From Octopus vulgaris (Eukaryota), in assembly GCA_951406725.2 (NCBI GenBank), contig OX597818.1:49848001-49912000 (forward strand): 64,000 nucleotides of DNA, given 5' to 3'. Position numbers and translations under genes: made by a program. Below the pieces are notes generated by a model that saw only the letters and a program-made list of their open reading frames with translations, was not told where the DNA came from and searched no databases. Within the stretch, counting starts at the first letter, position 1. Each line of letters starts with the position of its first letter. Below are positions 4,792 to 63,471 of this stretch, one piece after another.

Positions 4792-4824
4792 ATTTTAGGC
4801 AGGCATAAACAGGCAAGGGATAAG

Positions 4825-5228
4825 GGATCTTTTCGGTTTGAACGGCAGTTTTTTCTAGCGATGTCATATGAAATTGTCACCCATAATTATGACCCTAGTA
4901 TCGATCTATTGCATTTCAATCTGTTTTAGGGTTAGGGGTGGAGGGAAGGGTATCTTTTTTTCTTCAGAAATGTAAATAAACCCAATCTGTTTCTTAAACG
5001 AGAGACATATTCATACGGCACAGAATGTTTTCACCTCAATAGATGTCATTGATTGGTTGAAATTGCAGAAATTGAAGAAAAGAAAACAAATATCTTACAA
5101 ACTATAGAATTTTCTCAATAAAGCCAAGAGAAAAAGATATTTTATAAACACATCCTACCACTATACGAAATTTAAAAGTGTTATGTGGAAATTATTTTAA
5201 AAAACTGCCGTTCAAACCGAAAAGATCC
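4825..5228. mobile_element. MITE with GGATCTTTTCGGTTTGAACGGCAGTTTTT TIRs (Merlin-like), copy 1
   Basis: About 29-bp terminal inverted repeats. The 8-bp flanks GGGATAAG/GGTAAAAG match at 6/8. Near-identical copies lie at 8390 and 18143. Confidence 0.8.
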
Positions 5229-8389: not shown

Positions 8390-8810
8390 GGATCTTTTCT
8401 GTTTGAACGGCAGTTTTTTTAAATAATTTCCACGTAACTAAACACTTTTAAACTTCGTATATTGGTAGAATATTTATAAAACATCTTTTTCTCTTGGCTT
8501 TATAGAGAAAATTCTATGGTTTGTAAGATATTTGTTGTTTTTTTCTTCAATTTCTGCACTTTCAACCAATCAATGACGTCTATTGAGGTGAAAACATTCT
8601 GGGCCGTATGAATATGTCCCTCGTTTAAGAAACAGATTGGGTTTATTTACATTTGTGAACAAAAAAGATACCCTTCCCCCCCTAACCCTAACCCTAACCC
8701 TAACCCTAAAACAGATTGAAATGCAATAGATCGATACTAGGGTCATAATTATGGGTGACAATTTGATATGACACCGCTAGAAAAAACTGCCGTTCAAACC
8801 GAAAAGATCC
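8390..8810. mobile_element. Merlin-like MITE, copy 2, carrying (CCCTAA)5
   Basis: Same TIRs as 4825-5228, in opposite orientation. Flanks TAATTCAG/TAATTTGG. Telomere-type repeat at 8680-8709. Confidence 0.8.
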
Positions 8811-9856: not shown

Positions 9857-9929
9857 TAGCCCATCACCTTCTACCCACATTTTTCCCATCCACATTTTTA
9901 CCATATGAGGCCCTAACAGAATCCGATAA

Positions 9930-10385
9930 TAGGTAATAGATGGATGTGTCAACTGTGGGTGCAGTCTGAGCTGAGATGTGAGGATGTGACAGCACGGTTG
10001 CTTGGGCCAGGGCTTGTTTTGTAGATTCAAAGGCTGAAGTCATTGTACTGTCCCACTCCACCTGTCTTTTTGCACCTTTTTTTGACAATGCCTTGTACAG
10101 GGGCCTCAACACTTTTGCTGCAGAAGAGATGAAGCGATGGTAAAAGTTTACCATGCCCACAAATTGACGTAGAGCCTTGCTTGTGGTAGGGCGTGGAAAG
10201 GATAAGATAGCTTTTAGTTTACCTGGCAGGGGTGTAGCGCAGGCACTTGTGATTCGATGTCCCAAGAAGTCGATTTCTGTCGCACCAAAAACGTACTTGG
10301 CGGGGTTGATTACTAACCCATACTGTTCCAGCCTATCAAAAATAGTCACTAGGTGCTTCTTATGTAGCTCTGCAGATTCTGTGAA
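9930..10385 (-). mobile_element. Ty3/gypsy pol fragment (RT C-terminus, connection, start of RNase H)
   Basis: HLVTIFDRLEQYGLVINPAK..IDFLGHRI..LRQFVGMVNFYHRFI..AFESTKQALAQATVLSHP are hallmark gypsy RT motifs. Truncated on both sides. Confidence 0.9.
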
Positions 10386-12339
10386 TGAAACAAACTAGAT
10401 CCAAATCTTAATCGAATCGGCTTCCAAGATAATAAATGTCTGAACAAATATGTCCTAACTGTTACAAAAGAGCATTTAGTTCCGACGAAAAAGAAAACAA
10501 TAAAGTTTTCCATGTTTTCTTGACACAATCAACAAGGTATTTGTATCTCTTTAAGAAGAAAATTGACTAGGGGTTACTAACAACAACACGCCTCTTCCCA
10601 ACCCTATTTTATTGTAGAATGATTGTTCAACCCCAGTACAAGGTTGGAAGTCATTATTTCTCTTTTTGCAAATAGATTACTTTATCTAACATACTCAATT
10701 TTTTTTTAAGACAGCAGTGTGTGATTTGGGACATTGACAGCTATTTGTAGCAAAATCGAGGGCCCACATACAGAATCCTTCCTTGACAGGCGTATTTTCC
10801 AGTTATCTTTGAAGAACCTATTGTTATGACCTTGTTAGTTACTGTGCATACACGATTCTCTCCCTTGGCGAGACCATGTTTCCCTTTAAAATGTGACTTA
10901 CGCACTTCACTTCGTATTGAGAAAAGTATATATTGTAGAAAATTAACAGCCTACATTTGTTGACACATATGGTATAAAGTATTCTTTTTCTTCTTCAAAT
11001 AATTTCTGTGCTTAAATTGCTTTGTTTTGTCTCACGTTACCGCCTTCATGTTTTTACACTATGACCTACACCGTTTTCAATGTTTCTTTGAAGTCAAATG
11101 TCCCTTTCATGTCCCTTTTATAAAACTATCTGTATATACTACAAAATTTTTAATTTACAATACAATTGTATTGTTAATACATTTTATGAGATATTCATTT
11201 CTAATTGTTATAACACATATAAATATTTGACACATACGAATTGTATATTATGGGGTATTATTCTTTTAGGAAGTTGAATTTTAAAAAATTAATTCCTAGT
11301 GTTTTAATTTAATTGATTTGTTGAAAAAGAATACGGTACAGGATTCCTAATAAATTACACAGTTTAAACCTTCTCCCATCTAATTACGATTCTACTTAAA
11401 CTGAAAATAATTCCAGTCTTTTTGATATAGCTTAATATGATTAGTGTACCGGCATATAGTTGTGCCGAGTGTACCAATATGCAGAATCTAGATTTGTGCG
11501 ACCATCACACTGATTTCTTTCCTCATTTCATCATCTTCACAAAGTATTAAATACTTGTTTCAGTCTTTAGTCGAGCAATTCGCCCCCAGGACTTATTCTT
11601 TGTAAGCCTAGGTACTTATTCTATCGGTCACTTTTGCCGAACCGCCAAGTTAACAGTTGTTGCTTAACCTCCAGTTAACCTGTGATCAAAATTAGTCAAG
11701 ATATAACCATCTTGTGTTGTTAAATGTATCTACTATCCAATGTGTCCTTTCTTTTTAATGATGATGGGGTTTGATTTGAGAAGATTTGGCTGCTATTTAT
11801 AGCAGGTCTGTTGACTTGAGTTTTCACAACCGTTGAATGTAGAAATGTACCCAGCTAACATTATGCCATCCATTTAGCAATAAGATTTCATAACAGCAAA
11901 AAAAAAAACCAAAATAATTTACACATTGGTCTCTAGTGTGAGAAGAAATTTGCCATCAGTGATTCTTCTTGAATTTATTGTTGCATGCAAATAAATAAAC
12001 CTTTGTGGTGTGTTGTCTTAGTGTATTCACAGGTCAGCAGACCTGTGATCTAAGATTTTCCAACCTTGAGCTTCCAGTATTTTTTGCAGTATTTAAGACA
12101 CATCAAACAGTGTTCTTCTCTTTTTGCAAGATAGGAGAGATTAGAGGGAAATTTGACTGCTATTTTCTCAGGTTTGCACACCACACAGAAGTTTCCCCAT
12201 TGGCTCAATCAATCTTCAGGATTTGAAAGGATACAAACTCAAATTCTCCTCATTCAAAAAAATATGCTACTGCTGAGCAACACCCGACTCTATATTTCTT
12301 TGTTTGAAACATTTTTTATTGAAAAAAGATACAGATATA

Positions 12340-13514: not shown

Positions 13515-14054
13515 ATGAATTGTGTACTAAGAGCTTCATTGAACTTACATAGAAACTTTTCATCTATATTCAATGGAATCATTCAAAAGACTATTATATC
13601 AGGAAATTCTAACCAAACAATTCTTCGAGCCTTAAGTACCACGTCAACATGCAGCCAGTCTTTTTCTACAAAGAACTTTAATGTTCCTAGTGGACCTTTA
13701 ATTTCGAAATCACCATCCTGTCTTTTGTCCAATAATTCAAGTTTGTTTTCCATTCTGCCAACTTCTGGATTCCCTTGGCAACAAAAACGTACTTACAAAA
13801 TGAAGCTGTATCCAAAACTCAGGTGCAAAGGATGTTATTTTGTTTATAGGCATCGTCGTTTGTATGTTGAGTGTAACTTAAAACCTCGTCACAAACAGAT
13901 GGAATTTAAAACTAAAGGAGAGTTATGGAGGGAAGATTACTCAAAAGGAGGTGTAAAAACAGCAGCATTTTGGAAATGGTCTAAAGAAGCTTGGTATAAG
14001 CGTGGAGATAATAAATATTCTCGCTTTGATTGGTTACAAGGAAAATATGACTGA
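13515..14054 (+). CDS. MRPL36: Mitochondrial large-subunit ribosomal protein bL36m, 179 aa, single coding exon
   Basis: Ser/Arg-rich, acid-free presequence, then YKMKLYPKLRCKGCYFVYRHRRLYVECNLKPRHKQ (L36 CxxC..C..H zinc ribbon). Polypyrimidine acceptor TTTTTGCAG ends at 13504. AATAAA at 14102. Confidence 0.93.
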   Translation: MNCVLRASLNLHRNFSSIFNGIIQKTIISGNSNQTILRALSTTSTCSQSFSTKNFNVPSGPLISKSPSCLLSNNSSLFSILPTSGFPWQQKRTYKMKLYPKLRCKGCYFVYRHRRLYVECNLKPRHKQMEFKTKGELWREDYSKGGVKTAAFWKWSKEAWYKRGDNKYSRFDWLQGKYD

Positions 14055-16329: not shown

Positions 16330-16900
16330 ACCAGAACTAAAGAAGTTTCAGGTATGGAAGCAAGGTCTAGAATTGAAGGACCTTAGAGTTAACCTAGCAA
16401 AAACCAGTAAGTAGGAAGGCAGACAAATCCCTTCAGGTAGATGGCCTTGCTCGATCTGTAGAAAAGACATAGGTAGAAAATCAACTGTCTCTTCCTAAAG
16501 TCATCAGCTTGTTGACAAGGAAAACATGGGCTGGTAGGGAATTCCAAAAGTTTGATGTTTAGGGAGGAGTGATTGGGTGAAGTTGTTAGTGCAGTGCAAT
16601 GTAGGGTTAGACACAATGTGGGTGATGAGTGAGTCATGTGAATGTAAAGGGAGGGAGCATGAGATCAGCTTGCCCCAAAGAGCAGAGGCCACTGGTAACA
16701 ATAAAAAAGACAAAAGCCAAGAGCATATCTGTGGATCAAAGTTTGGAGTGAGTAGGTGAGTGACTGTGCAAACCAGTCTAAGATGTTTGTGTTCAATGGC
16801 AACAGTAGCAGTGAATCAAATGTGCAGTATTCTGTTGGGGATCTCACTCCAGGCTTGTAGAGAGTTAGCAACTGTCAGGAGCTGGCTTTGAAGAGGAAGG
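16330..16900 (-). mobile_element. Degenerate L2/CR1/Jockey-group LINE 3' fragment
   Basis: Minus-strand LLTLYKPGVRSPTEYC resembles the LxxLYKxxVRPxxEYC motif. A similar decayed piece lies at about 27230-27680. Confidence 0.55.
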
Positions 16901-18142
16901 TCAGTTTTTGAAATGCAATTTTTACTGCTATTATAACTTCAAAATTAAACTATTTTTAGCTAGCTATGATGTTTAATGTACTTTATATGTGAGTTTTGAG
17001 CATAATGGACATTAAACAATTTCTTTTTCGGGATCATTAATAAAAGTGCTTATGCATTCTCATAACATTTTCAATAGCAGACAAAATTGGCTGATTTAAA
17101 ATGTTATCTTAAAAAAGTCTCTCACTTGCGAATAGGATCTACTGAGAAAACAGTTATTCCGAAAAAGAAATTTTAAATACTAGATTAATGTATACTAGCC
17201 AGAAAAAGGGAAAAATTACCTCTTTCCTTCTACGATAATTATCATATTTTAGACTGATTTGAAGTCCTTGCCTGGACAAGTTCGGCATAGAAAGACCCTA
17301 CTTTCTAAAGGTATGATGGAATAGTCAACTCTTTGCTAAAAGCATTGGTGACATAAATAAAATGGCTTCTACCATGATCCAAAATTACATTGTAAGCTAA
17401 TCCTGCTGAGTTATAACATTGTTCTATGGCACTCCTCTGACAAAATAGCTTGAGGTATTCAGTTACAGCTTTTTACATTCTGAATTAAAATCCTGCTGGG
17501 TTCCTTCCTAGGTTGATAAAATAAGTACCAGTCAAGTATTGGGGTGGTCGATATAATCATCTGTTCTCACCATGTTTATGGCTTTCTTTAAACAGAAAAT
17601 CAATATTTATCTAAAATTTGAAATTGAATACAGATAAGTGTTTTGGATGATGCCATGAAATAAAGCAAGTTGAATGGTTTTATTTATTCTTAAGTGTTTA
17701 TATATCCCAATATGATACACAAACACATATTGTATCTAAACAGTAAACACATTATTATTAACAGCATAGATAATTGATTCAGTATAATGTTATGAAGAGG
17801 CAGGAAGATAGAAACAATATGGTAACACAAACGTTCTTTAGTATTGGAAAAAGATGTTCTAAATATATGTGTATTTGTAAGTAGCTCTGTTATTGCTTTT
17901 AAAATTACTTTTCAAAATATGATAATTTTTAAAAGCTAGTAATTGTACTTTTTGATAAATACATTGTAAATTGAAGCTAACGGAGTCTCCAAACATGACA
18001 TTTAGAAAATTGTGACTGTGTTCTATAACTGACAAAGACATCTATTACAAACTTATTTCATCTAGCTATATAAATAGGCACCTCAATGAAACATCAATGC
18101 TATTAGCTGATGATTATTTTGTTAGCTTGTAGTGCTAGACTG

Positions 18143-18565
18143 GGATCTTTTCAGTTTGAACGGCAGTTTTTAACATAATTTCCACGTAACTAAAAAATTT
18201 TAAACTTCGTATTCTGGTAGAATGTGTTTATAAATCATCTTTTTCTCTTGGCTTTATTAAGAAAATTCTGTAGTTTCTAAGATATTTGTTGTTTTTTTCT
18301 TCAATTTCTGCAATTTCAACCAATCACTGACGTCTATTGAGGTAAAAAAACATTCTGTGCCGTATGAATATGTCCCTCGTTTAAGAAACAGATTGGGTTT
18401 ATTTACATTTCTGAAGAAAAAAAGATACCCTTCCTCCCACCCCTAACCTTAACCCTAACCCTAAAACAGATTGAAATGCAATAGATCGATACTAGGGTCA
18501 TAATTATGGGTGACAATTTCATATGATACCGCTAGAAAAAACTGCCATTCAAACTGAAAAGATCC
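18143..18565. mobile_element. Merlin-like MITE, copy 3
   Basis: Same TIRs and body as copies 1 and 2. Flanks CTAGACTG/CTGGACCA. Confidence 0.8.
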
Positions 18566-19313
18566 CTGGACCATTGAGTTTCTGTATTATATGTTAATGA
18601 AGATGTAATGGCTATTTCAGTTATATTATTATCTAAATTACCAAATAAGCAATTAATTGTTGGAATTATAAAATTCAAGACAAATGATCAAAATAATAGC
18701 CTGTGTCTTCTTTTCTTTTGGAAAGTATAATATGAAAGAAATTTGGTTGCTATTTTGGAAGCTTCTTCATGGGCTTGTGTAACAGTTTTTGAAAGTTAAT
18801 ACTCTGCAATGGCACTTTGACACAAAGCTGAAATATTTAATATTACTTATTGTCTTTTAGTAATTACAATAGAATTGTTGATGTAAACTGTATCAAGTAG
18901 TTATCAGGTCAGGTATAAGGGCCATACATCACTGCATCCAGCATTTATTGGTATCTGCTCAGGGCATCTTGAGCAGTGTCCCAGTCAGTTTCCATCTTAA
19001 TGAAACATTTCAGCATTGGTTGTGGCCATGAGGCTGGTAGCTGACCAACACAAGTTGTCAGCCCAGCTGGATCCTCAGAGAAGAGAACACAGTATGCAAG
19101 ATACGACTTGAAAAATTAAGCAGCATGACCAGATAGTCTAAGCTGACACTCCCAAATTATACAAGACACAGGATGCCTCCCAAATAGTTATATTTATGAA
19201 GAAATTTTTAATGAGAGCACAATTTAATTCTTTTGGAATGTTTTAATGCTGAAATATTTGTTTGATAAAACTGGAGAAAATCAATTTTCTTTATAAGTTT
19301 TAATTAAGAATAT

Positions 19314-20687
19314 TCAAAGCTTTTTCAACCTTTTTGTTATTGCAGTTTTCATTTCTTGTACTGAACTAGATTTCATGGTATGAAAACAGCTTTCTCGAAA
19401 TTCTTCATTTGTAGATCTTCGAACAACGTTTGCAATCGATTCACTAACACTTGAAAAACTGTCTTCATTTGTATTTTCCTGATTTGAAGTATCTGTATGA
19501 AAGACAAGATCTGTGAAACTTTCTATTGCTATTCTTACATTTCTTTCATTGGTGTCAAAAACAGACTTCAAGTTGTTATGTAGATGTCCAAGAACATGTA
19601 AGCTCATGGCATGTCTTTTATCAGTATTGTCAAATATTATATAAATAACAACACAAAACTTTTGACATTTCAAAGTATTTCCATTTGTTAGTTGTGTAAC
19701 AAGACATTGTTCTGGCTGTAAAGAACTGTTTCTATTTTCAAAGGAATTATTTAGCAAAGCTTTTAGATTGTATTTCTCCCATGAAATAAAATTTAAAATT
19801 GTATGTGGAAGTTTTAAGGGTTCACCATAGGGACCAAAGGAGAAAAATTCAACTAAATGCTGTTTTTCTCCAGCATCTTCTTCTGCAAGAGGGAAAAGAA
19901 AACCAAGACAAGTCAAAGTAAAGATATTCCGGAAAATATTTTCTTTGGTGGAAATAGTTAAAGATGTTGTAGTACCTATGAAAGTCTTTCCTGAAATATC
20001 ATCTGTCTTACCAGTTTTAGTATTTTGATGTAAACCAATGAGTATTCTTTTATTACACAGTTCAATATAGTTATTAGTAGATAAATCAGGGTTGCATTTG
20101 ATACCTGATACTTTTAATTTATACTTGAATTCATCTGATGGGTTTAAAATTCTTATTTTTTTCAGATAATCAAGAATTTTGCTACATTCACTCAGCATAT
20201 GCGCATGATTTTGGTAGATTCTCAAATACCATGTAGCTTGACTTTGAAGGACTCTGTTGATACTTAGAGAAATTTCACTTAAGTCAGTGGTTTTATTTTG
20301 AGGATTTTTAATAAAAAAATAATTCCTTTGCAAAGCTTGATTGTCATTCAAATGACACTTTTGAATTTGACATAAGTGACTTTCATTTTTAATCAAGGAT
20401 TGCATTCTTTCTACTAAGAATTGCAATGTTTTGATTAATCCTTCCTTAAGATACACAGAAATATCTGAAATACTGCTAATGCAATATAATTTAATTTTAA
20501 ACAATTCTTGTTGGGTGCTATCATTTCCAGTGTTGCATGATTTTATATCAAGGGTAAGTGAAAACTTATCCCTTACAAATTGTTGCTTTTGTTCTAAAAA
20601 TATCATGCGTATTAGTTCTTCTACTGCTACATGAACAGGTAAATCTTCCATTTGGTCAATTCCAACTGCTGCCCATGTCTCAGACAT
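19314..20687 (-). CDS. TOP6BL: TopoVIB-like meiotic protein (SPO11 partner, DUF4554/C11orf80 family), 457 aa, intronless
   Basis: Uninterrupted 457-codon ORF in very AT-rich DNA. The motif order matches the vertebrate TOPOVIBL transducer as I recall it: FSFGPYGEPL (cf. FLYGPSGLPL), ISWEKYNL (TopoVIB WxxY, cf. VDWKKYHL), strand KFCVVIYIIF, and SESIANVVRRSTNEEFRESCFHTM (cf. VNSIMSILTGSTRSSFRKMCLQTL). Confidence 0.82.
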   Translation of the reverse strand: MSETWAAVGIDQMEDLPVHVAVEELIRMIFLEQKQQFVRDKFSLTLDIKSCNTGNDSTQQELFKIKLYCISSISDISVYLKEGLIKTLQFLVERMQSLIKNESHLCQIQKCHLNDNQALQRNYFFIKNPQNKTTDLSEISLSINRVLQSQATWYLRIYQNHAHMLSECSKILDYLKKIRILNPSDEFKYKLKVSGIKCNPDLSTNNYIELCNKRILIGLHQNTKTGKTDDISGKTFIGTTTSLTISTKENIFRNIFTLTCLGFLFPLAEEDAGEKQHLVEFFSFGPYGEPLKLPHTILNFISWEKYNLKALLNNSFENRNSSLQPEQCLVTQLTNGNTLKCQKFCVVIYIIFDNTDKRHAMSLHVLGHLHNNLKSVFDTNERNVRIAIESFTDLVFHTDTSNQENTNEDSFSSVSESIANVVRRSTNEEFRESCFHTMKSSSVQEMKTAITKRLKKL

Positions 20688-21292
20688 ATTTTCTCAGGCA
20701 AATTCTTAGAAATAAATCGTCTGCTACGACAAACGCTGCCTCTCTGACCCACACGAGTTACTTCCCTTGGTCGCTTCTATTATAAACCTATTGTTTCCCT
20801 CTGTTTTATTTGCTGCTACATTGAAGCTTAGCCTCTAGCGCTTTTTCTCACTAAAATATGTTCAAATCGCAATATTTCGATGAATTAAACAGCACAGTTT
20901 CTTAAAATTTATATTACATTAATCTCCAAGGTTAGTATAGTTATGATATTTCATCTTGTTTTTTGCAATGACTATTATTATTCATGAAAATACAATGACT
21001 TGCACGTCGGTTCACAGATATTACATATGGCGTAGAGGATATCCTTGTCCGCCCGAAAATCCTCATGTTTTTCGTTTTGTTTCAATTTTTGTATTTATCT
21101 CTTTAAACTACCTCTTAATTCTTACCAGATATTTTCAATATATCGTTTAAAGATTTCACTTATAGCATTATTCTAACAATATCTTATTCTGAGAAGCCAA
21201 TATATATATATATTATTGAAGGTGTGCTTGAATGTAACATTAATTTATTCAAAATATTCATGAAAATTATTTAAAATTATTTAAATTCAATT

Positions 21293-21857
21293 TAAATAAT
21301 TAATTGCATATATATAAAAAATTTACCAAATTTTTAACAGATTTTCCTGAAATACTCAGACATGAGTTAAGAATAATTTGTGCATCAATTTTCTTAATGT
21401 AGCAAAAACATTCTTTTATATCAAGAACATCTAAATTTCTATCTACTAAGCACATGTCAATCCATTCTAAAGAAAACCATGCTTGTATAAAATTGCTCAG
21501 CAATCCATAGAGATCTTTAATTTGTTCCACTGGCCACAACATGATGTGTAAATCACAGAAGAATCTGAATTCTAAATAATTAATTGCATATGTATGAGAA
21601 ATTTACCAAGTTTTTAACAAATATTCCTGAAATGCTCATAAATGAGTGAAGAATAATTTGTACATCAATTTTCTTAATACAGCAAAAACATTCTTTTATC
21701 TCAAGAACACCTAAATTTCTATTTACTAAGCACATGTCAATCCATTCTAAAGAAAACCATGCTTGTATAAAATTGCTCAGCAAATCTATAGAGATCTTTA
21801 ATTTGTTCCACTGGCCACAACATGATGTGTAAATCACAGAAGAATCTGAATTCTAAA
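21293..21857. repeat. Direct tandem duplication, two units of about 280 bp
   Basis: Units begin TAAATAATTAATTGCATAT at 21293 and 21573 and end GAAGAATCTGAATTC. They differ by scattered substitutions and a 1-bp indel. Confidence 0.9.
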
Positions 21858-24800
21858 ATTCTAACTAATAGTATTCTTTTAAATATGTTTACTGATAAAG
21901 CGCTCTGCAAATGAAGAATTTTACACACAGTAGATGGCTTTCAGGATTTTTAAATATATTTAAAACAAAAACCAAACGAAATAACGCTTTCAAAATTTAT
22001 TTGACTTGTGTCGCCTTTAAAAGCATCTTTTTTTTTTTTTTTTGAAAAAAAGCAAGCTAATTTTTGAGATTAAAGGTAGTCTATAATTAAAAGCGTTCCA
22101 TCTGTGACCATCTCGTTTATTTTATTATTTTTTTTGCATATCTCAGATTACATTGTCCGGTGATCCTTTGCATTTTGGCCAAAAGTAAATACCTACAAAC
22201 AAATCCAGGAATAATAGAGTAAAATACCAATATGAACGTCATTAAATTTTCTAAAGAAGCATATTTCAAATATGAAATTTTGGCATTCTTAGATCGCCGA
22301 AATTTCAATCTTGTTTTATTAAGATACGCTTAAGGATAGACTCCAGATAAACCTTGTATAGGTGACTAACAAAGATCTGCATTTAACTGTCATTGAATCA
22401 ATACCACCCTTGCTGAATACATTTACGTTTTATACTTAAAACATGATTAAATATCATTTGAAACAAGCTTTATTTATTCATTTAATTTTTAGAAAATGCA
22501 ATGATCGATATTAGTGTATGTTATTCTGGTGTCTGTTAGTATTTCCTTTTGGGTTCATAAAGTATCGCCCATTGTTCGATTTGTCCTTATGTATTTAAGG
22601 TGGTAAAATGTTATTTGTGAGAATTTGCTGTTATTTCTTGCATGTCTAGCGCTGGATCTCGCCGAGATCGACTTCGCGTTTCATCCTTCAGAAGGTTCTA
22701 AAGTTCTTCGGAGTTGAGTTGGTGTTTCTGTGAAGTTGTCAGTGAATGACGTTATTTACGTACTTGGAATTGTAGTAAAACGAAATATTAAACTCCAGGA
22801 TCGCCTAGAATCGGTGGCGATGTTTCGATATGACTCGCAGAAATGTAAACATCTGACGAGTCAAAACGAAAGATTGCCCTATGGTAAAAAACTAGGGATC
22901 AATCATAAAATACTTTCAAGTATTCTGCGAGTACAACTGCTAAATTGGTGTTATAATCTGCTTACTATGTTTTTCAAAATGGGAATTTAAAATGTGGATA
23001 TTTACTCGTATCATATAACTTTGGTAAAATTCATTTGGAGACTATGGATAAGGGTCACACAATAAAGGTTTTGAAGGCATTTGAATTATTTTTTCATTGA
23101 ATGCATTTGTAAGAATGATTAAATCAAAGCAAAATTGTGAAGATCGATCTTATTTATTTCGGACGTTTGATTGTGGCGATGCTGCGGCACCACTACGAAG
23201 GGTTTTGTTGGATAAATCAACACCAGTACATACTTTTAAAGTCTGGTATTTATTTAAATGGTCTTTTCTATCGAACCGAATAGTTACGGGGACGTAAACA
23301 AACCAACACTGTCAAAGTTTCTGCAGTTTCCATCTACCAAATTCACTCTCAAGGCATAGTTGGCACAGAACTACAGTAGAAGATACTTGACCAAAGTGCT
23401 GTGCAGTAGCACTGAATCTGAAACCATGTGGTTTCAAAGCAAGTTAGTTAACCACTCAGCTATGTTGGCAATTCCATTGAAATGCAGGTTAACAATGAAA
23501 TGCTACCATCGTTCGTTTAACGTCCGCTTTCCATGCTAGCATGGGTTGGGCGAACCAGATGGCTGCACCAAGCTCCAATCTGATCTGGCAAAATTTCTAC
23601 TGCTGGATGCCCTTCCTAACGCCAACCACACCGAGAGTGTAGTGGGTGCTTTTACGTGCCACCTGCACGAGGACCAGTCAGGCGGTACTGGCAACGACCA
23701 CGCTCAAATGGTGTTTTTTACATGCTACCTGCACAGGAGCCAGTCCAGCGGCACTAGCAACGACCTCGCTCGAATGTTTTTTCATGCGCCAGTAAGGCGA
23801 CGTTGATAACAATCATGCTCGAATGGTGCTTTTTACGTGCCACTGGCACGGAAGCCAGTTAGCCGCTCTGGCAACAATCACGCTTGGATGGTACTCTTAG
23901 TGCTCCACTAGCATGGATGCCAGTGCTACCAAAGAGTTGCAGTACTCTTTTAAAGGCTTGTTTCACCATCCATAAAAGTCACTTATTAGGAGGCCAATGT
24001 GATATGCTTACATGTATGTTGCTCCAACTACAGATAGAACAGGTAAGATTATCTCTGAACCCTCTACTATAAAGAAATTCCATAGAGTAACTTTCAGGCA
24101 TTACATTTCATTAGTTGGGGTATAATATGATTTTTCTTCAATTAATAGTAGTTCTTAATACAGACTGCCATTTGCTTCTGTTCAGTGCAAGAATTTCTCA
24201 TGTAATGAAGTTAATGTTCAAGGACTTAGGATAGTCTTTTGTGATATCATGAAATTTTTTCATGGTTTGTGTTGGAGACACCAAAAACTAATTCACCATA
24301 AGTTATTGCTTCAGAAGCTTGTAATCATGAAGATGGATTGTTTGACCAACACATAGCATGTAATACAATCAAATGTGGATTAATGTGTGGTATGTTACTG
24401 TTTGTTATGTCCAAAAGTGTTCTTATCTACTGCTGGGTTGAAAATTCCTTTTAGATTGCACAAGGGCAGAGCCACTGTTGTTGAGATTCATCATCATCAT
24501 CATCATCATCATCGTTTAACGTCCATATTCCATGTTGATCGATTTCGATTTTTATTTTTCTTGACAAAATTACGCCAAACTTAATTAGATGTGTCTGCAA
24601 TAAGAAAGTGTTCAAAATCAAAGTGTCAGCCACCCTGTGTGTGTGTGTGTGTTTCTTTTACTTGTTTCAGTCATTTGACTGTGGCCATGCTGGAGCAGCA
24701 CATTTAGTCGAACAAATCGACCCCAGGACTTACTCTTTGCAAGCCTAGTACTTATTCTATTGGTCTCTTTTTGTTGACCTGCTAAGTTATGGGAACGTAA

Positions 24801-28126: not shown

Positions 28127-28324
28127 ATTTTTATTAAATTATTTTATATATTATCATTTTCAGAAATATGTATATGTGGAAAAGAGAATTGTATTTATAT
28201 CCCACCCTGCTCTGTTTTTGAAATTATTGTATAATTAATAAACATATCTTTTTTATCCTTCTTGTTCATCTAGATGCAACATTGAACTTAGCTTTCCTGA
28301 AAAACAAACTCCAAAAGACTGAAA

Positions 28325-29880
28325 ATGGCTTCAACAGTCGACAGATTTACTGATGTTAATCTTACTGATTACATGGATGTTGTTACTACATACAAATGCC
28401 GATTCTGTAATTTCTCCTGCAACCAGCCTCAAGAGATTGGTATACACGTTCGTAATGTGCACATCAAGACAACTCCTTCCAAATTGAGTACGATTTCAAA
28501 TATGCCTGATATTGAACAAGCAGAAAGTTCTTCAGGGGATGTCACTGTTGAGGAAGAGACAATACCTGATCTGTCTAAGACCCAGTCTGTAGCTGTTTCT
28601 CAAGAAGCGTCTTCATTGTCAGATGTAGACTCTGTTTCTTTGATTGAAAAATCTGATGCAGGGTCATTGATAGAGTTAGCTTCAAATCATCAACAAGTTA
28701 TTTTCACTCAAGGTTCTTTAAACGAGCCCCAAATGATTCCAACTCACAACGATATCTTATCAACTGGAAATATCGTACCATCTTACATTCCTCTGGAAGC
28801 TACTACAACTGTTGAAGACTCGTTGACTTTTGTTAATGAATCTGAAATTAATTCACAAGCAATTAGTCAGTTTTCTGTTGCTGCTTCTGACGACTTTTCC
28901 GAACCTAATATTGAAGGGGATGATGTTCTTACGAAAGAATTGTTTCTGTGTGGCCAATGTAGAATTGGGTTTAACAGTATTGAAGAATGTAAATCTCATA
29001 TCGTGCAAGTCCACAATATTTTGCCCCACAATGAAGACAATCAGTTACCTGGAGAACCTGTTAATAGAGTCAGTGTTGGAACACAAGTTGTGTCTACCAA
29101 AAAAAAGCCAGGTAGAAAACGGAAAAACCCATTACCTCAGAGATCCTCGTCACCTGTTTCAGACAAGGACTGGGAGGAAGATGAAAATAGCGAATGGTAT
29201 TCACGCAAAGGACGGAGTCGTAGAAAAATTCGCCCACCAAAAGCTCTGAAAGATGATTATTATTTAGGTAAAAAGAAAAGAAAGAACAAAGATACTAATG
29301 TTCTTACAGAAGGCTACAGTCTTAAGTGTAATCTGCAAGGATGTTTTGCCAAGTTTAAGAAGGACCAAAGTTTAAAGATTCACATTGCTTGCCACAAAAA
29401 GGATGCAAATAGGTCTTTCTTTGAGTGTAACATGTGTGCAGTTGAATTTCTTCTTTGGAAACATCTTAGGATGCATCTTTGGCGTTGCCACTCTATTGAT
29501 ACAGATCTTTTTGCATGTGAGAACTGTGAGTTCAAAACAGACACTACCCACAAATTACTGATTCATAAAGAAATTCATAGTGACCAGAGGCCGTATACAT
29601 GTGATATATGCTGGAAAGGCTTTAAGCAGTTCAGTCAGATGAGGAACCACCAAATGATCCATGCAGAACACCAGTCAAATGATGCTGATCGTTGGTATAC
29701 CACCAAACAGTGTGACATTTGTAAACGAACTTTTGCTAATCAGAAGTGTTTAAGTAAACATGTACAAGCTGTCCACAGTAAGATCAAACCATATGTGTGT
29801 TCATACTGTGGTCATTCAACAGCACGTAAAGCTATGCTACAGTTACATCTACGTATCCACACTGGGGAAAAACCATTCAA
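28325..29880 (+). CDS. C2H2 zinc-finger protein, coding exon 1 (817 aa in total, 11 fingers)
   Basis: AAAATGG start after an acceptor ending at 28273. Eight C2H2 fingers, with HSDQRPY and HTGEKPF linkers. Donor AA|GTAAGT at 29881 (phase 2). Confidence 0.92.
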
Positions 29881-30615
29881 GTAAGTAATCTTATAAATCT
29901 CAAAAAGCTTTCAGGCCATTTATAGTTATTCATTTGTATTGCTCTACCTGTTATAAGCATCTGCCTGTGTTCAGTGGAGACTGGTTCTTACAGAAATCTC
30001 ATATTGTTTCCAAACCCTCTTATATCTAGGAGCACTCTGTCGGTTGCAACGACGAGGGTCCCAGGTGATACGATCAACGTAACAGCTTGCTCGTGAAATT
30101 AAATGTGCAAGTGGCTGAGCGCTCCACAAACACGTGTACCCTTAATGTAGTTCTCAGGGAGATTCAGCGTGCCACAGAGTGTGACAAGGCTGGCCCTTTG
30201 AAACACAGGTACAACTCATTTTTGCCAGCTGAGTGGACTGGAGCAACATGAAATAAAGTGTCTTGCTCAAGGACATAATGCGCCGCTGAGAATTGAACTC
30301 ACGACCTTACAATCGTGAGCCGAATGCTCCTAACCACTAAGCCACGCGCCTTCTAGTTAACAGATTAATATATTTTTTATTAGCAAAAAAAATTAAAATC
30401 ATTAAAATGAACATAGTTACACCTGTATCATATTTTTAAGAGAGGAAGTCAGTCTGAGTTCAAATCTCAAATGTTAGAAAGAACCGAAAATGTAAATTTA
30501 AGCAGATATTGACATTGGTAGTTTTTATAATTTCAAAGTTATGTGAGCTTTAATGATTTATTTTCCTTTATATTTAATGTAAAACAATGATGCTCAATAT
30601 TTTATTTTTATTTAG

Positions 30616-31513
30616 GTGTGATGTTTGTCAGTATGCTACTGGAGATCACAACTCACTTCGCCGTCACAAAATGCGCCACTCTGGATTGAGACCATACAAA
30701 TGCCAATATTGCTCTTACTCGTGCATCCAAGCTATTTCTTTAAAAACTCACATGAAAAATAAACATCCTGATTCATCTGGAATTTATCACTGTGATATTT
30801 GTAACTACCGAACGGTAAATGCTACCAGTTTTACTAACCATGTCAGTGATCACAAGTACGGGTTGATTGATGTCCAAGAAGGCACCAACACTACCACCAA
30901 CACCGCCACCACCACCACAACTACCGCCACATTATCAACAACAACATCTACCACCACCACTGAAACAACTACTAATTCAACAGTTCTTTCTTCCAGTAAT
31001 AATAAAAGTATATTACAAAAAGTCAACGACCCTAGTAATGGTGAAATACAAACTCAGTTAGCACCTGTAGAGAACAGTGTTTCAAATCTAAGTGCAGATG
31101 ACATTATTAAAATGGCCCAAACAGGGAATAATCTGGTATCGACGGATCTCACTGCTGCAGAATTAATTTATGCTATTGCAACCAATTCTCTTCCGCAAGA
31201 CTCTCAGATGCTTACTGGGATGCAAGCAACCATAAATACATCTTCTAAACAAGGAATATCAACACACACAATTACTTTGCATTTACCACCATCTCAATCA
31301 CAGATTGCCTCAGATGAAAGTTCTGATCAAAGAAATGCTGGACATACTTTGTTGATGGTGCAACCGTTGGAACTGTGTTCTGTAAATGGTGATGGTAATT
31401 CACAGACTCTGCCTGCTGAAGATATAAGAGTGAATTTTCAACCAGCTGAAAGTTCAGTAACTGCCACAGAAGTAGTTTTGGCCTCAGATGATAAAATTAT
31501 TACTGCTGAGTAA
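30616..31513 (+). CDS. C2H2 zinc-finger protein, coding exon 2
   Basis: Acceptor TTTATTTAG|G restores KPFK-CDVC in frame. Three more fingers, a poly-Thr stretch and a Ser/Gln/acidic tail. Stop at 31513, AATAAA near 31776 and 32043. Confidence 0.92.
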
Positions 31514-46012: not shown

Positions 46013-47569
46013 ATGAATTGTGAAGGAAAATCTACTGGTGTAACGAACTCTAAGAAACCTTTACCTAAAAGCAATATCGGAAGACCTATAATGTTTGATT
46101 ACCACAAAAAAAATTTCCCCTTTCAGAGCCATTTAAATAAATATTTTAAAAACCATAACACAGAAAATTCTGGTAAAAAATGTTTTTTGAAGCCATTTTT
46201 TTATTCCAAAGGTCTTTCAAAGAATTTAAAGATACATTTCTTATATGAATGCACTTTCTGTCAAAAACTTTTTGCACATAATAGCAACCTAAGCAGACAC
46301 ATGAGGGTACATTCTGATGAGAAATTGTTCCAATGTAACCTTTGTGAAAAGTCTTTTACATCATCAAGTAACTTAGGTACGCATTTAGGAAATCATTCAG
46401 GAAGCCACATGACGAAGAATCCTTTTAAATGTGGATATTGTAAAAAAATATTTACCAAATCAAATGAACTTATCAAACATATTGAACTGCACACAAAACA
46501 AAATTCTGATCAACAAAAGTCAAGCTGTTCGTTGAAAGCTGTTCCTTCGAGTGAAGGTGGAAGAAGCTGCTCAGGTACAAAACATATTGATGAACAGTCA
46601 GCATCGCCCAAAGGTAACTGTAGTTTTGATCAACAGTATAAACCCGATCATACTTATTGTTTCAATGCCAGCCAGGAGTTGAATGATGGGAACGAAACGA
46701 ACCTACTTGCATTTGGCAACAAAAGTAAGTGCCATTCGAATAGCATTGAGAAAAATCAGTTACAACCTGATCATACATATTGGTCACATGCTAAAAAATC
46801 TCGCCTTTGTAAAAGGAAAGTAAAATCTTCACATTCCAGTCAAGAACCGTCGGTGAATCAATCTGATTCTAACAAGCCCAATATCGAGTCTGATCACACG
46901 TACAGCTCAGGTTGTAGCACTAACATGCTTGGTGATAAGTTACCATTAGAACCTTCAGCTTGTAACAGTGAACTTGTGCCTGAGAAAAATGCAAGAAAAT
47001 TGAAACCTGACCATACGTACAGTATTGGAGTTCATTGTAGCGAAAAAAAGACAAACGCTCAAGAGGATTCGTCTTTGCAGCTTGTACACCATTCTTCTCA
47101 TACAGATAACTGCAGTAATTCTGGGAGACCCATACCTCTGAATACTCAGCATAACCAAAACTCTCAACCAGTGAGTACACCTCTGAAAAAGTCAAGTAAA
47201 AACAATTGCCTTGATCAACCAGTTGAAACCACAGTACATTGTTCAAATATTTCTAAACCCGACCACACATATTCTCATAAAAAAGGCATAATTTCTAATA
47301 TGAATAATTTGAAAACATTTGGTAATAGGTCAGTTAAAACAGACTGGGAGAAACTAAGCTTTACACTTCAAGCTGCAAAAGAAAATCAGCCTTCCTTTGA
47401 TCATACATATTGTTTTGATGCTAAGCTCCAAAAAGAACCCGATGGAAAAGGTACAGATCATACATACTGCCTAGAAGAAGATGATTTTATTTGCTCACAC
47501 AATTGGAATGCAAACATGATGTCTGATCACACGTATTGTTTGATGAATGCCGTTACACGACACTTTTGA
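46013..47569 (+). CDS. C2H2 zinc-finger protein with eight DHTY (HCF-1-binding) motifs, 518 aa from the first in-frame ATG
   Basis: Three canonical fingers (CTFC..HMRVH, CNLC..HLGNH, CGYC..HIELH), then a Ser/Asn/Lys-rich tail with DHTY at 46646, 46769, 46892, 47009, 47261, 47399, 47456 and 47525. AATAAA at 47711. Confidence 0.88.
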   Translation: MNCEGKSTGVTNSKKPLPKSNIGRPIMFDYHKKNFPFQSHLNKYFKNHNTENSGKKCFLKPFFYSKGLSKNLKIHFLYECTFCQKLFAHNSNLSRHMRVHSDEKLFQCNLCEKSFTSSSNLGTHLGNHSGSHMTKNPFKCGYCKKIFTKSNELIKHIELHTKQNSDQQKSSCSLKAVPSSEGGRSCSGTKHIDEQSASPKGNCSFDQQYKPDHTYCFNASQELNDGNETNLLAFGNKSKCHSNSIEKNQLQPDHTYWSHAKKSRLCKRKVKSSHSSQEPSVNQSDSNKPNIESDHTYSSGCSTNMLGDKLPLEPSACNSELVPEKNARKLKPDHTYSIGVHCSEKKTNAQEDSSLQLVHHSSHTDNCSNSGRPIPLNTQHNQNSQPVSTPLKKSSKNNCLDQPVETTVHCSNISKPDHTYSHKKGIISNMNNLKTFGNRSVKTDWEKLSFTLQAAKENQPSFDHTYCFDAKLQKEPDGKGTDHTYCLEEDDFICSHNWNANMMSDHTYCLMNAVTRHF

Positions 47570-60286: not shown

Positions 60287-61223
60287 TTCTTATTTCTTTA
60301 TTGCCCACAAGGGGCTAAAAATAGAGGGGACAAACAAGGACAGATAAAGGGATCATGTCGATTACATCAACACCATTGCATAACTGGCACTTAATTTATC
60401 GACCCCGAAAGGATGAAAGGCAAAGTCGACCTCGGCGGAATTTGAACTCAGAACGAAACGGCAGACGAAATACGGCTAACGCATTTCGCTCGGCGTGCTA
60501 ACGTTTCTGCCAGTTCGCCGCCTTCTTATTTCTTTATTGCCCACAAGGGGCTAAACGTAGAGGGGACAAACAAGGACAGATAAAGGGATCATGTCGATTA
60601 CATCAACACCATTGCATAACTGGCACTTAATTTATCGACTCCGAAAGGATGAAAGGCAAAGTCGACCTCGGCGGAATTTGAACTCAGAACGAAACGGCAG
60701 ACGAAATACGGCTACGCATTTCGCTCGGCGTGCTAACGTTTCTGCCAGTTCGCCGCCTTCTTATTTCTTTATTGTCCACAAGGGGCTAAACGTAGAGGGG
60801 ACAAACAAGGACAGACAAGGGGATTAAATCGATTACATCGACGCCAGTGCGTAACTGGTACTTTATTTATCGACCCCGAAAGGATGAAAGGCTGAGTCGG
60901 CCTCGGCGGAATTTGAACTCAGAATGTAAAGACGGGCAAAATGCTGCTAAGTATTTTTCCCGGCGTGCTGACGTTTCTGCTAGCTCGCCGCCTTAATGAT
61001 AATAATAATCCTTTCCATTATAGGCACAAGGCCTGAAATTTGGGGGGAGGGGGCCAGTCGATTAGATCGACCTCAGTACACAACTGGTACTTAATTTATC
61101 GACTCTGAAAGGACGAAAGACAAAGTCGACCTCGGCAGAATTTGAACTCAGAACGTTAAGACAGACGAAATAATGCTAAGCGTTTTGCCCGGCATCTTAA
61201 CGATTCTGCCAGCTCGCTGCCTT
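60287..61223 (-). mobile_element. Head-to-tail run of four family A SINEs
   Basis: Complete units at about 60287-60522, 60526-60757, 60760-60992 and 61008-61223. The first two share private variants (GGGATCATGTCG, CAACACCATTGCAT), which implies local duplication. Confidence 0.85.
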
Positions 61224-61264
61224 AATGATGATGATGATGATGATGATGATGATAATGATGATAG

Positions 61265-63471
61265 TGTGCCAAAATGGAGAGCTGTACTAACATCAGGCCA
61301 AGATAAGCTCGGTAGAGTCAACGTAAGTAGGGGAATATTCCAAGGTGATAAACTCTCACCACTGCTATTCGTGTTTGCCCTTATCCTTCTTACATTGACC
61401 CTGAGCAAGGTTAAATCATGCTACGAATTTAGCAGTGAGGAGAAAATAAACCACCTCTTGTTTATGGACGACCTGAAATTATTTGCCAAAAGTGAGAAAG
61501 CTTTAGATTCACTGCTACAGACTGTTCGAGCTGTGAATGGTGATATTAGTATGGAGTTTGGAACAGATAAAGAGAGGGAAAATATATTCCAAGTCAGAAG
61601 GGATTATAGGGAATGAGGGTGACCGTTACGAGTACTTAGGTGTATTGGAGGCAGATAACACTCTCTGCCAAGAAATGAAAGATGTGGGAACCGAATATCT
61701 CAGGAGAGTGAAAAGAGTACTAAGCTCAAAATTAATTAGAAGGAAAAACATCTCTGCAGTAAACGCATGGGTAGTCTCTCTAATAAGATATTCTGATAAT
61801 TACCTGAACTGGACTAAAGAAGTGTAGTGGATCTTGCAAGCATGAAGTGGATTCGATCCACCATAGCCAAATTTAAATTAACACGGCAACAGAAGTTTTC
61901 CCACGGTGGATCAATGGTTTTTCTGTGACAGCAGTTTTGCATTTTCCAGATGCCTCTAGCTAGGCCGAAATAATGTCTTCACTACTTGACCCTTTCTAAC
62001 CTCTTCAACTTTAACAAAAGCTAGAATAGAGATAACAAGATCACCAACTAAATCTACTGTTCCCAATGATATCATAAAAGCAAGAACACCCCAAGCAAAA
62101 ATCAGTCGGTGACTACTCAACGAGTTCAGCCACATGGTGACGACTCAACCAGTTAATCACTCGGAGACAACGAAGTCTGGCTGACCAGCTAGAACCTTGG
62201 TCAGAAGGAGAAATGAAGTTTACTGTTAGCAACTATGAGACAACGTCTCACACCCTACAACTCTCACTAGCTCTAATTTTGTTCTCTTACAACATTCTAT
62301 CTCTCTCTGTAATTACTACTAAACAATGAAGAGGACCCAAACACAAACTTTACTTCGCATGCTTTTGTATTTATCATAACCTGCCCGTCGAGGCAAGGTA
62401 TTGTAACGTAACGGTAAATAAATATTTCCTTAAAACTTCATGTATTGTCCATCTTCCACATGTTACAACTTGCCGTTATAGCAACAAATTTTTATCGTTA
62501 CAACTGTTGACTCTGACATTTCATAATATTGTTTATAAATCAATTTCTCCCGCAACAGAAGAATTAAGAAACAGATTGTAAAATTAGGAAGACACAGTTC
62601 ATGTACCGGTCGTTATAACTCATAGGCAGGGTCGATAGATTATGCCTATTACAGAAGTAGGTGGGAGAGGTCTGATATCAATAGAAAACTGTGTAGAGAT
62701 GGCAAAACAAACATACAAGAGTATGTACGAAGCAATCAAGAAGGAGCAATTTCAGCTGTGAGAGGAGAGGAGGCAGAAGACGTTGGAGACGGCAACGGAA
62801 TACACGGAAAGAAAGCAGGAGCGAGAAAGAAACATCTGGGGAAAAGAACAACACGACCAGCATGCTAGACAGACACAGGACGTCGCAGCAAAGGAGTCTT
62901 GGTTATGGTTGAAGAAGGGAGACCGTAAGAAGCATACAGATTCATAATGGCCGCTCAAAGCCAGTCGTTGTGGACGAATATCATTATGGCCATAATAGAC
63001 AAATCCGCGGAAAGTGCAAAGTGCAGACTATGTAACGAGAAACAGTAATCTGTAATGCACATAATAAGTTTCTGTAGTCCTTTGTTGGGTATTAATGCAC
63101 AGAATGATCGCGAAATAAATGCCAGAGGACCAGATATTATGGTTCATGGCAAGGGTGAAAAGAATGCACCATCATAAATATGCCTATATCTACAGACATG
63201 AATCTATCATCAAAGAACAAGAAAAAATAGGAAAATACCAGAATTTGGCTTAAGGAAATATGACGACTCTTTTACTTGTTTCAGTCATATTTGACTGCGG
63301 CCATGCTGGAGCACCGCCTTTAGTCGAGCAAATCGACCCCCAGGACTTATTCTTTGTAAGCCTACTACTTATTTTATCGGTCTCTTTTTGCCGAACCGCT
63401 AAGTTACAGGGACGTAAACGCACCAGTATCGGTTGTCAAGCGATGTTGGGGGGACAAACACAGACACACAA

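Follow-up and report, generated by a model that had tools for sequence, protein, structure and literature searches.

A single-exon TOP6BL gene in Octopus vulgaris whose reading frame stops before the C-terminal domain

Does a long uninterrupted reading frame in octopus DNA encode TOP6BL (TOPOVIBL), a partner of SPO11 in meiotic break formation, and if so, how did the gene come to be free of introns and which parts of the protein does it still carry? The frame lies in a 64,000-nucleotide stretch of Octopus vulgaris contig OX597818.1 (hereafter the window), for which an initial annotation had proposed an intronless TOP6BL, probably hidden as an uncharacterized protein, with a degenerate ATPase site and an origin by retroposition. 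What that annotation overlooked is that the C-terminal tail is missing, which is more unusual than the intron-free frame.

Reading frame and family identity

19314..20687, minus strand: TOP6BL/TOPOVIBL coding region, one exon, 457 aa plus TGA

Translation confirmed the single 457-codon frame and placed it on the minus strand, which the initial annotation had left unstated, with the ATG at 20687 and the TGA at 19314–19316. All four peptides quoted there were recovered (VAVEELIRMI at residues 20–29, FGPYGEPL at 284–291, WEKYNL at 303–308, and SIANVVRRSTNEEFRESC at 417–434). An in-frame stop lies three codons 5' of the ATG, and the plus strand of the same interval is crowded with stops in its reading frame. 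Across 200 base shuffles of 16900–23300, the longest stop-free run averaged 93 aa and reached at most 157 aa, which excludes chance as the source of a 457-aa frame. Alignment with the scallop orthologue is colinear throughout (ORF residues 14–454 against scallop 5–459, 8% gaps), and the core of the protein is therefore complete, with no hidden in-frame intron.

A close relative recovered in the protein searches, P0002, has the same length (457 aa) and is 87% identical to octopus TOP6BL with no indel, and a contig from sequencing run X19 (another organism, a run of genomic size) crosses 19329–19928 of the ORF free of gaps. A contig from run X1 that covers 20341–20768 has a 13-nt deletion at 20690, just beyond the frame, and there are no other gaps in the run X1 pieces of the ORF. 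Three of the five substitutions listed for the ORF change an amino acid, a number too small to demonstrate selection.

That the minus-strand ORF is a true TOP6BL orthologue is, in our assessment, practically certain, and family identity as such is expected and unsurprising. The initial annotation had named a Pfam DUF4554 search and an AlphaFold model compared by Foldseek as checks on this identity, and both bore it out. DUF4554 (PF15091) scored 33.7 bits on residues 296–453, above its cut-off of 27 (E = 2.8e-8), and was the sole family reported for the ORF at a maximum E of 1, and topoisomerase VI B entries occupied the leading Foldseek ranks (described below). The best three ESM Atlas clusters were named type 2 DNA topoisomerase 6 subunit B-like (0.94–0.95). 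An unfiltered phmmer search of 1.84 billion representatives returned nine proteins at E ≤ 0.001, P0002 among them; seven of the nine matched DUF4554 at E < 0.1 and two exceeded its cut-off (P0002 scored 28.2 bits). Five of the nine, annotated as uncharacterized or unnamed, are from lophotrochozoans: Argopecten XP_069118223, Ostrea XP_048735956, Saccostrea XP_062577353, Haliotis XP_046571146, and Owenia CAH1792793. These orthologues are colinear with the whole 457-aa core at 17–22% identity to octopus TOP6BL and are 673–841 aa long.

A PDB sequence search gave no matches for the TOP6BL protein, and alignment there yielded chance matches only (E ≥ 0.16). A metagenome scan produced 112 pattern matches, none of them a relative. 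An alignment search (80–1472 aa, top 8000 candidates) recovered P0002 and P0008 only and missed the named molluscs, and is therefore insensitive. No squid, cuttlefish, or Nautilus proteins were recognized in the searches, which does not imply their absence. An ESM Atlas search with P0008 gave leads below 0.9. In a nine-row tree the octopus pair fell in an open fork with other lophotrochozoans; its branches are long and the tree is not relied on.

The exact octopus protein was absent from a collection of 15 billion proteins, in which two neighbors from the same assembly (MRPL36 and the zinc-finger protein encoded at 46013) are present, and the gene therefore looks unannotated rather than mislabelled. 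The expectation that it would be hidden as an uncharacterized protein thus holds for the mollusc orthologues, but not for the octopus protein, which was itself not found. We found no paper on a cephalopod or an intronless TOP6BL; an Octopus sequence may already appear in supplementary alignments S17–S19 of PMC9665070, or in PMC9671922 among its figures or in one of its supplements.

Fold and ATPase site

20088..20651, minus strand: degenerate GHKL-like (Bergerat-fold) domain, about residues 13–200 (model secondary structure; isolated GHKL matches over residues 12–210)
20583..20636, minus strand: helix 18–35, which includes VAVEELIRMI, where the N-box helix would lie (model; Met for the TopoVIB Asn, register by eye)
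19815..19838, minus strand: FGPYGEPL, a transducer motif conserved in the family (consensus FGP..P)
19770..19781, minus strand: WEKY (residues 303–306), counterpart of TopoVIB WKxY (aligned by hhalign onto WKQYGL with a probability of only 1.2%; W..YG in relatives)
19320..19490, minus strand: three terminal transducer helices, H400–424, H428–437, and H443–456, the predicted SPO11-binding 3H region (model)

We assessed the fold with an AlphaFold2 model built from a 10-row alignment (mean pLDDT 71, pTM 0.68). Foldseek placed topoisomerase VI B at ranks 1–14 (E 1e-9 to 1e-7), with MutL and gyrase ranking lower; seven of these rows are titled topo VI, and 1mx0, 1mu5, and 2zbk are topoisomerase VI B entries. 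Archaeal/bacterial TopoVIB was also the best match in the VIA structure search (2q2e_B, Z 17.6, rmsd 5.8, 310 aligned; 2zbk_B, Z 17.3, rmsd 9.4, 340 aligned, reaching residue 457), and the next family was ParE at Z 13.1. The GHKL domain and the transducer are common to both proteins, whereas sequence identity is about 11–12% and octopus TOP6BL lacks the N-box Asn. Comparison of alignment A1 with 40 prokaryotic TopoVIB sequences (drawn from 76 usable of 120 loci) by hhalign was not significant (at best 0.7% at full length, 1.2% for the C-terminal half, and 0.1% for the reversed control), and the TopoVIB link accordingly rests on structure and Pfam. The prokaryotic loci were picked by an N-box pattern, so that N-box conservation among them is circular. 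An archaeal-type TopoVIB with an active ATPase was rejected as an identity for this protein, which has no N-box Asn and an hhalign probability of at most 1.2%.

The initial annotation had located VAVEELIRMI where the N-box would be and had remarked on the missing Asn. The placement holds in the model, in which the GHKL-like domain begins with helix 18–35 and structural alignments to TopoVIB start at residues 13–14, and the Asn is indeed missing; the residue register, however (E24, with M28 at the Asn position), was set by eye, and hhalign did not recover it. With that register, Asn occupies the position in none of the nine full-length rows of alignment A1, octopus included. Loss of the Bergerat motifs is described as usual in animals by Brinkmeier et al. 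(PMC9665070), and mouse TOPOVIBL is reported to show no specific ATP binding (PMC11347134). Judged from the aligned rows and this literature, degeneration of the ATPase site is common to the whole family. It is therefore uninformative about this copy, and its use as the mark of a retrocopy, as first proposed, does not hold.

In mouse Top6bl and other metazoan TOPOVIBLs, a degenerate GHKL-like domain, a WKxY-like motif, and three terminal helices follow one another in the order found in octopus, and the N-box Asn is absent from both. The three helices bind SPO11 in mouse (PMC9665070); in octopus they have a block pLDDT of 81–91 from residue 411 and form the best conserved part of alignment A1. 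By extension from mouse, octopus TOP6BL would be a scaffold for a one-way cutting enzyme, whereas TopoVIB is part of an ATP-driven gate.

The missing C-terminal domain

19314..19316, minus strand: TOP6BL stop codon, where other animals run on into the C-terminal domain (model, motif scan, contigs)
18566..19313, minus strand: likely 3' UTR of TOP6BL, weakly indicated by run X17 contig cover

Octopus TOP6BL ends one residue past the third transducer helix. All eight of the more distant phmmer matches extend beyond this helix, by roughly 200–340 residues in the five named lophotrochozoans, where the tail closes with a W/F-containing helix motif, by several tens in P0007, and by about 30 in P0008 and P0010. 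P0002 stops at the same residue as octopus TOP6BL; it is probably an intron-blind gene call, so that its stop is not independent proof. The C-termini of the abalone and both oyster proteins carry the motif DDWL.[DE]..L.[LV]..W, of which Owenia has a partial form and scallop isoform X1 a divergent one, and similarity to the mouse REC114-binding peptide EDLWLQEVSNLSEWLNPG is seen in abalone, oyster, and Owenia (PMC9671922 for the peptide). Pocket residues of mouse REC114 are K95, V97, L104, M115, R24, and R117. Mouse Top6bl has a C-terminal domain at 452–579 with the REC114-binding helix, whereas the octopus ORF, a single coding exon, has neither. A 2022 survey (PMC9665070) gives the C-terminal domain and REC114-binding helix for all metazoan TOPOVIBLs, even the most reduced. 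The octopus ORF, being without them, is best classed as a variant rather than a standard member.

Two further proteins on ENA contigs, P0007 and P0017 (129 and 146 aa), consist of the three helices and a short tail only, like the 3H-only TOPOVIBLs described in PMC9665070.

We questioned whether the gene is truly tail-less, given that a weak late donor might splice to a last exon that went undetected, or a separate small protein might supply the helix. Such an arrangement would fit the scallop and oyster genes, in which a separate terminal exon encodes the helix; in addition, no run is proven to be RNA across the stop, and P0002, as a probably intron-blind call, would miss a last exon. Splice donors scoring at least 7/9 occur in the ORF at codons 226 and 384 only, however, and their use would delete the SPO11-binding helices. 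GT sites beyond codon 425 score at most 5/9 (two donors of the neighboring zinc-finger gene score 8/9), and among 90 donor-acceptor extensions near the ORF end, the eight longest contained no tail helix by eye. Reading through the stop adds 10 residues only. A motif matrix of the tail helix, applied to all six frames of the window, scored 12.2 at best against leave-one-out scores of 27–31 for four of its five training motifs; it fails on scallop (leave-one-out −14.8, the row being probably mis-registered), so that a scallop-like divergent helix would escape it. A tblastn search of the window with the tails of five orthologues found nothing under E 0.5.

Assembled contigs also cross the stop without a gap, namely a 1031-nt contig from run X17 (19085–20115) and a contig from run X19 (19095–19352). 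The long non-repeat contigs of run X17 (68 million letters) are confined to 18566–20694, i.e., the ORF and about 750 nt downstream, where ATTAAA occurs at +10, +67, +86, and +102 and AATAAA at +365 past the stop. This cover is mRNA-like, a weak hint given that the kind of run is not on record, and it argues against a hidden last exon, which we consider improbable. The TOP6BL product is very likely tail-less.

In the scallop Argopecten, isoforms X2, X3, and X6 (P0004, P0015, and P0016), three of the six annotated, are without the terminal helix exon. Going by these annotations, tail-less TOP6BL mRNAs may arise in bivalves through alternative splicing, and a transcript of this kind could have served as a template for retroposition. 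The octopus end (at about scallop residue 462) coincides with no scallop isoform break point.

Exon structure and origin of the gene

Scallop isoforms depart from isoform X1 at residues 58/59 (residues 68–69 of the octopus ORF in the window), 527, and 694, as seen in annotated proteins only, and an oyster Logan ORF is identical to the annotated protein over 209 residues before departing just ahead of the last helix. These breaks imply that bivalves have at least one core intron and a separate last exon; a single core intron (scallop 58/59) is deduced in this way, from isoform proteins alone. The intron-free coding region proposed at the outset is thereby upheld, with one frame in octopus that is colinear with the scallop protein and bivalve orthologues that bear signs of introns.

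Neither of the usual scars of retroposition was detected: no A-run of at least 8 lies within 2.4 kb downstream of the ORF, and no target-site duplication was found at the gene, where there is only one 10-nt direct repeat. Decay of both is expected in old copies, so that retroposition as the origin stays a deduction. Recent retroposition was rejected on the lack of a scar together with the intact, same-length relative P0002 at 87% identity; any retroposition is old.

20688..21099, no strand assigned: likely shared bidirectional promoter (CpG observed/expected ratio and head-to-head exon)
20803..20930, plus strand: first (untranslated) exon of a gene that lies on the opposite strand and is highly expressed, with the donor AAG/GTTAGT at its end
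28274..31513, plus strand: C2H2 zinc-finger gene, coding exons 28274–29880 and 30616–31513 (817 aa after splicing), to which the shared promoter likely belongs

The CpG observed/expected ratio is 1.2–1.3 at 20700–21099, compared with 0–0.24 at 19500–20699 (most of the ORF), and 116 bp separate the TOP6BL ATG from the first mapped base of a gene on the opposite strand. Two contigs from runs guessed to be RNA (run X1, 1768 nt, depth 163; run X2, 2653 nt, depth 45) begin with letters that fit 20803 or 20813 to 20930. The length of 2653 nt is reached by this exon together with the two zinc-finger exons, provided that the contig runs 31 nt past the zinc-finger stop (to 31544), and on these summed lengths the exon probably belongs to the C2H2 zinc-finger gene at 28274–31513. 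The head-to-head exon and the CpG-rich patch suggest retrogene replacement with a borrowed promoter, which lends circumstantial support to the retrogene origin initially proposed, although poly(A) and target-site duplication are missing.

Head-to-head gene pairs are common without retroposition, and the layout may instead be ancestral. TOP6BL would then never have moved, its introns having been lost in place, by cDNA gene conversion or stepwise, and its tail likewise missing. The lack of poly(A) and target-site duplication would be explained, and the locus is exon-poor (MRPL36 and the zinc-finger gene at 46013 each have one coding exon); the apparently intronless P0008 and P0010 belong to another lineage and point the same way. 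Loss of every intron together with the terminal exon is, however, more simply a single event, and the layout fits promoter capture by retrogenes as published (PMC5803294, PMC4772013). On balance we favor retroposition as the probable origin of octopus TOP6BL; intron loss in place is somewhat unlikely, and the fuller version in which the layout is ancestral and the gene never moved is unlikely.

P0008 (419 aa, on a 1.27-Mb ENA contig) and P0010 (427 aa, on a 4.2-kb Logan contig) are full-length TOP6BL-like calls with a very short, W-containing tail and, as far as their sequences tell, possibly represent an independent intronless lineage. Their full length on contigs implies that intron loss may recur among TOP6BLs by other routes.

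A retrogene at a borrowed promoter has precedent in meiosis. In amphioxus, SYCP1 was replaced by its own retrocopy, with a likely bidirectional promoter (PMC5803294), and the same layout is reported for other retrocopies that use the bidirectional promoter of a neighbor (PMC4772013). Amphioxus SYCP1 and octopus TOP6BL are alike in being meiotic genes with one coding exon, head to head with a neighbor. They differ in that loss of the parent, synteny, and expression are demonstrated for SYCP1, which gained a new multi-exon 5' UTR (PMC5803294), whereas octopus TOP6BL is known from sequence alone and, unlike SYCP1, is also without a protein domain.

Surroundings of the locus

MRPL36 (bL36m) lies at 13515–14054 on the plus strand, convergent with TOP6BL, and encodes 179 aa; its only coding exon follows an acceptor at ~13505. 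The C2H2 zinc-finger ORF at 46013–47569 (plus strand, single exon, 518 aa) has many DHTY motif repeats in its C-terminal half, and its protein is 99.8% identical to a member from O. sinensis and 96.7% identical to one from O. bimaculoides; at the 90% level both neighbor proteins share clusters with proteins of O. bimaculoides or O. sinensis, which identifies the window as Octopus DNA. The presumed first intron of the 28274–31513 zinc-finger gene contains a second CpG-rich zone (21900–23300, observed/expected mostly 1.1–1.6), possibly another promoter or an unmethylated patch, and a tandem duplication (21293–21857) with a unit of about 280 nt and pieces that are 92–99% identical. A MITE-like element at 18142–18566 with 30-nt terminal inverted repeats has near-full copies at 8390–8810 and 4823–5228 and is very high-copy in the sequencing runs. 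A run X19 contig skips it (18142 is joined to 18574), and it is therefore probably a lineage-specific insertion. ORF pieces at 9864–10394 (minus strand) and 61146–61616 (plus strand) resemble, by eye, fragments of retrotransposon reverse transcriptase.

Search for a second copy

The initial annotation left it open whether the retrogene replaced its parent or supplements it. A supplementary or slowly decaying retrocopy would leave the REC114-coupled job to an intron-containing, full-tailed TOP6BL elsewhere. This would accord with the importance of the tail in mouse, where delta17Ct females are sterile (PMC9671922), and with its presence in all metazoan TOPOVIBLs according to the survey (PMC9665070). 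Signs of expression of the octopus ORF are also weak, with cover at a depth of about 2 in run X1, where an intron was covered as well (depth 4), and none in run X2; run X19 has none at about 19930–20690, and such holes carry no proof.

A second Octopus TOP6BL protein was nevertheless not found in searches at 251–800 aa, 30–250 aa (where none of 349 candidates scored), and 80–1472 aa (top 8000 candidates), or by unfiltered phmmer. The same phmmer search found bivalve and annelid orthologues at 17–22% identity, and proteins from three Octopus assemblies are in the collection. The frame has, moreover, stayed open through 13% protein divergence. A supplementary or decaying copy is, in our view, quite doubtful.

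A possible SPO11 partner without a REC114 bridge

We give even chances to the joint reading that octopus TOP6BL is an old retrogene that replaced its parent, borrowed a promoter, and binds SPO11 without ATP while lacking the REC114 tail. Under this reading, an mRNA copy of TOP6BL would have inserted beside the 5' end of the zinc-finger gene before the sampled octopods diverged, either from a tail-less transcript or with the stop gained later, and the intron-containing parent would then have been lost. Extrapolating from mouse, the three terminal helices would hold SPO11 and the GHKL-like domain would bind no ATP, and a 1:1 complex would help SPO11 to engage DNA and dimerize, leading to meiotic breaks. 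Removal of the tail in mouse leaves SPO11 binding intact (PMC9671922), and the purified complex cuts DNA without REC114, with weak dimerization limiting (PMC11922745), so that by analogy a working core is still to be expected from the octopus protein.

Missing in octopus would be the tether to REC114-MEI4 condensates. The link to REC114-MEI4 would be either weakened or redirected, in the latter case most likely through direct contact of REC114 with SPO11. Male mice with the Top6bl delta17Ct allele still make breaks efficiently, though late, in addition to the female sterility noted above (PMC9671922), and direct contact with SPO-11 has been proposed for C. elegans DSB-1 (PMC13618423); by analogy with these cases, a rerouted or looser REC114 link would be the likeliest reading. 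In both systems the TOPOVIBL-REC114 bridge is absent or cut (PMC13618423, PMC9671922). C. elegans has lost the whole TOPOVIBL gene (PMC13618423), however, whereas octopus keeps the full core and would lack the bridge only, and the delta17Ct allele is engineered and harms fertility (PMC9671922), whereas the octopus truncation would be natural.

Tentatively, and with a little less confidence than in the joint reading, we propose that octopus meiotic breaks are made with a sole, retroposed TOP6BL whose tail was naturally lost and whose REC114 link was rewired, tail and introns having gone in one event. If true, TOP6BL would be a second case of a core meiotic gene whose place was taken by a retrocopy with a borrowed promoter, and the sequence in any case adds a TOP6BL gene that Octopus protein sets apparently lack. 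The way in which SPO11 is switched on by REC114-MEI4 condensates is an open question, and the mouse uses the TOP6BL tail helix as the bridge (PMC9671922). With that link missing, octopuses would need another way to control meiotic cuts, and would represent a "delta-tail" lineage that is fertile in the wild, with REC114 rewired to SPO11 or another partner. The octopus REC114 and SPO11 should then carry compensating changes, which offers a comparative test. An animal with the whole core minus the bridge would show the reverse of the reductions known so far.
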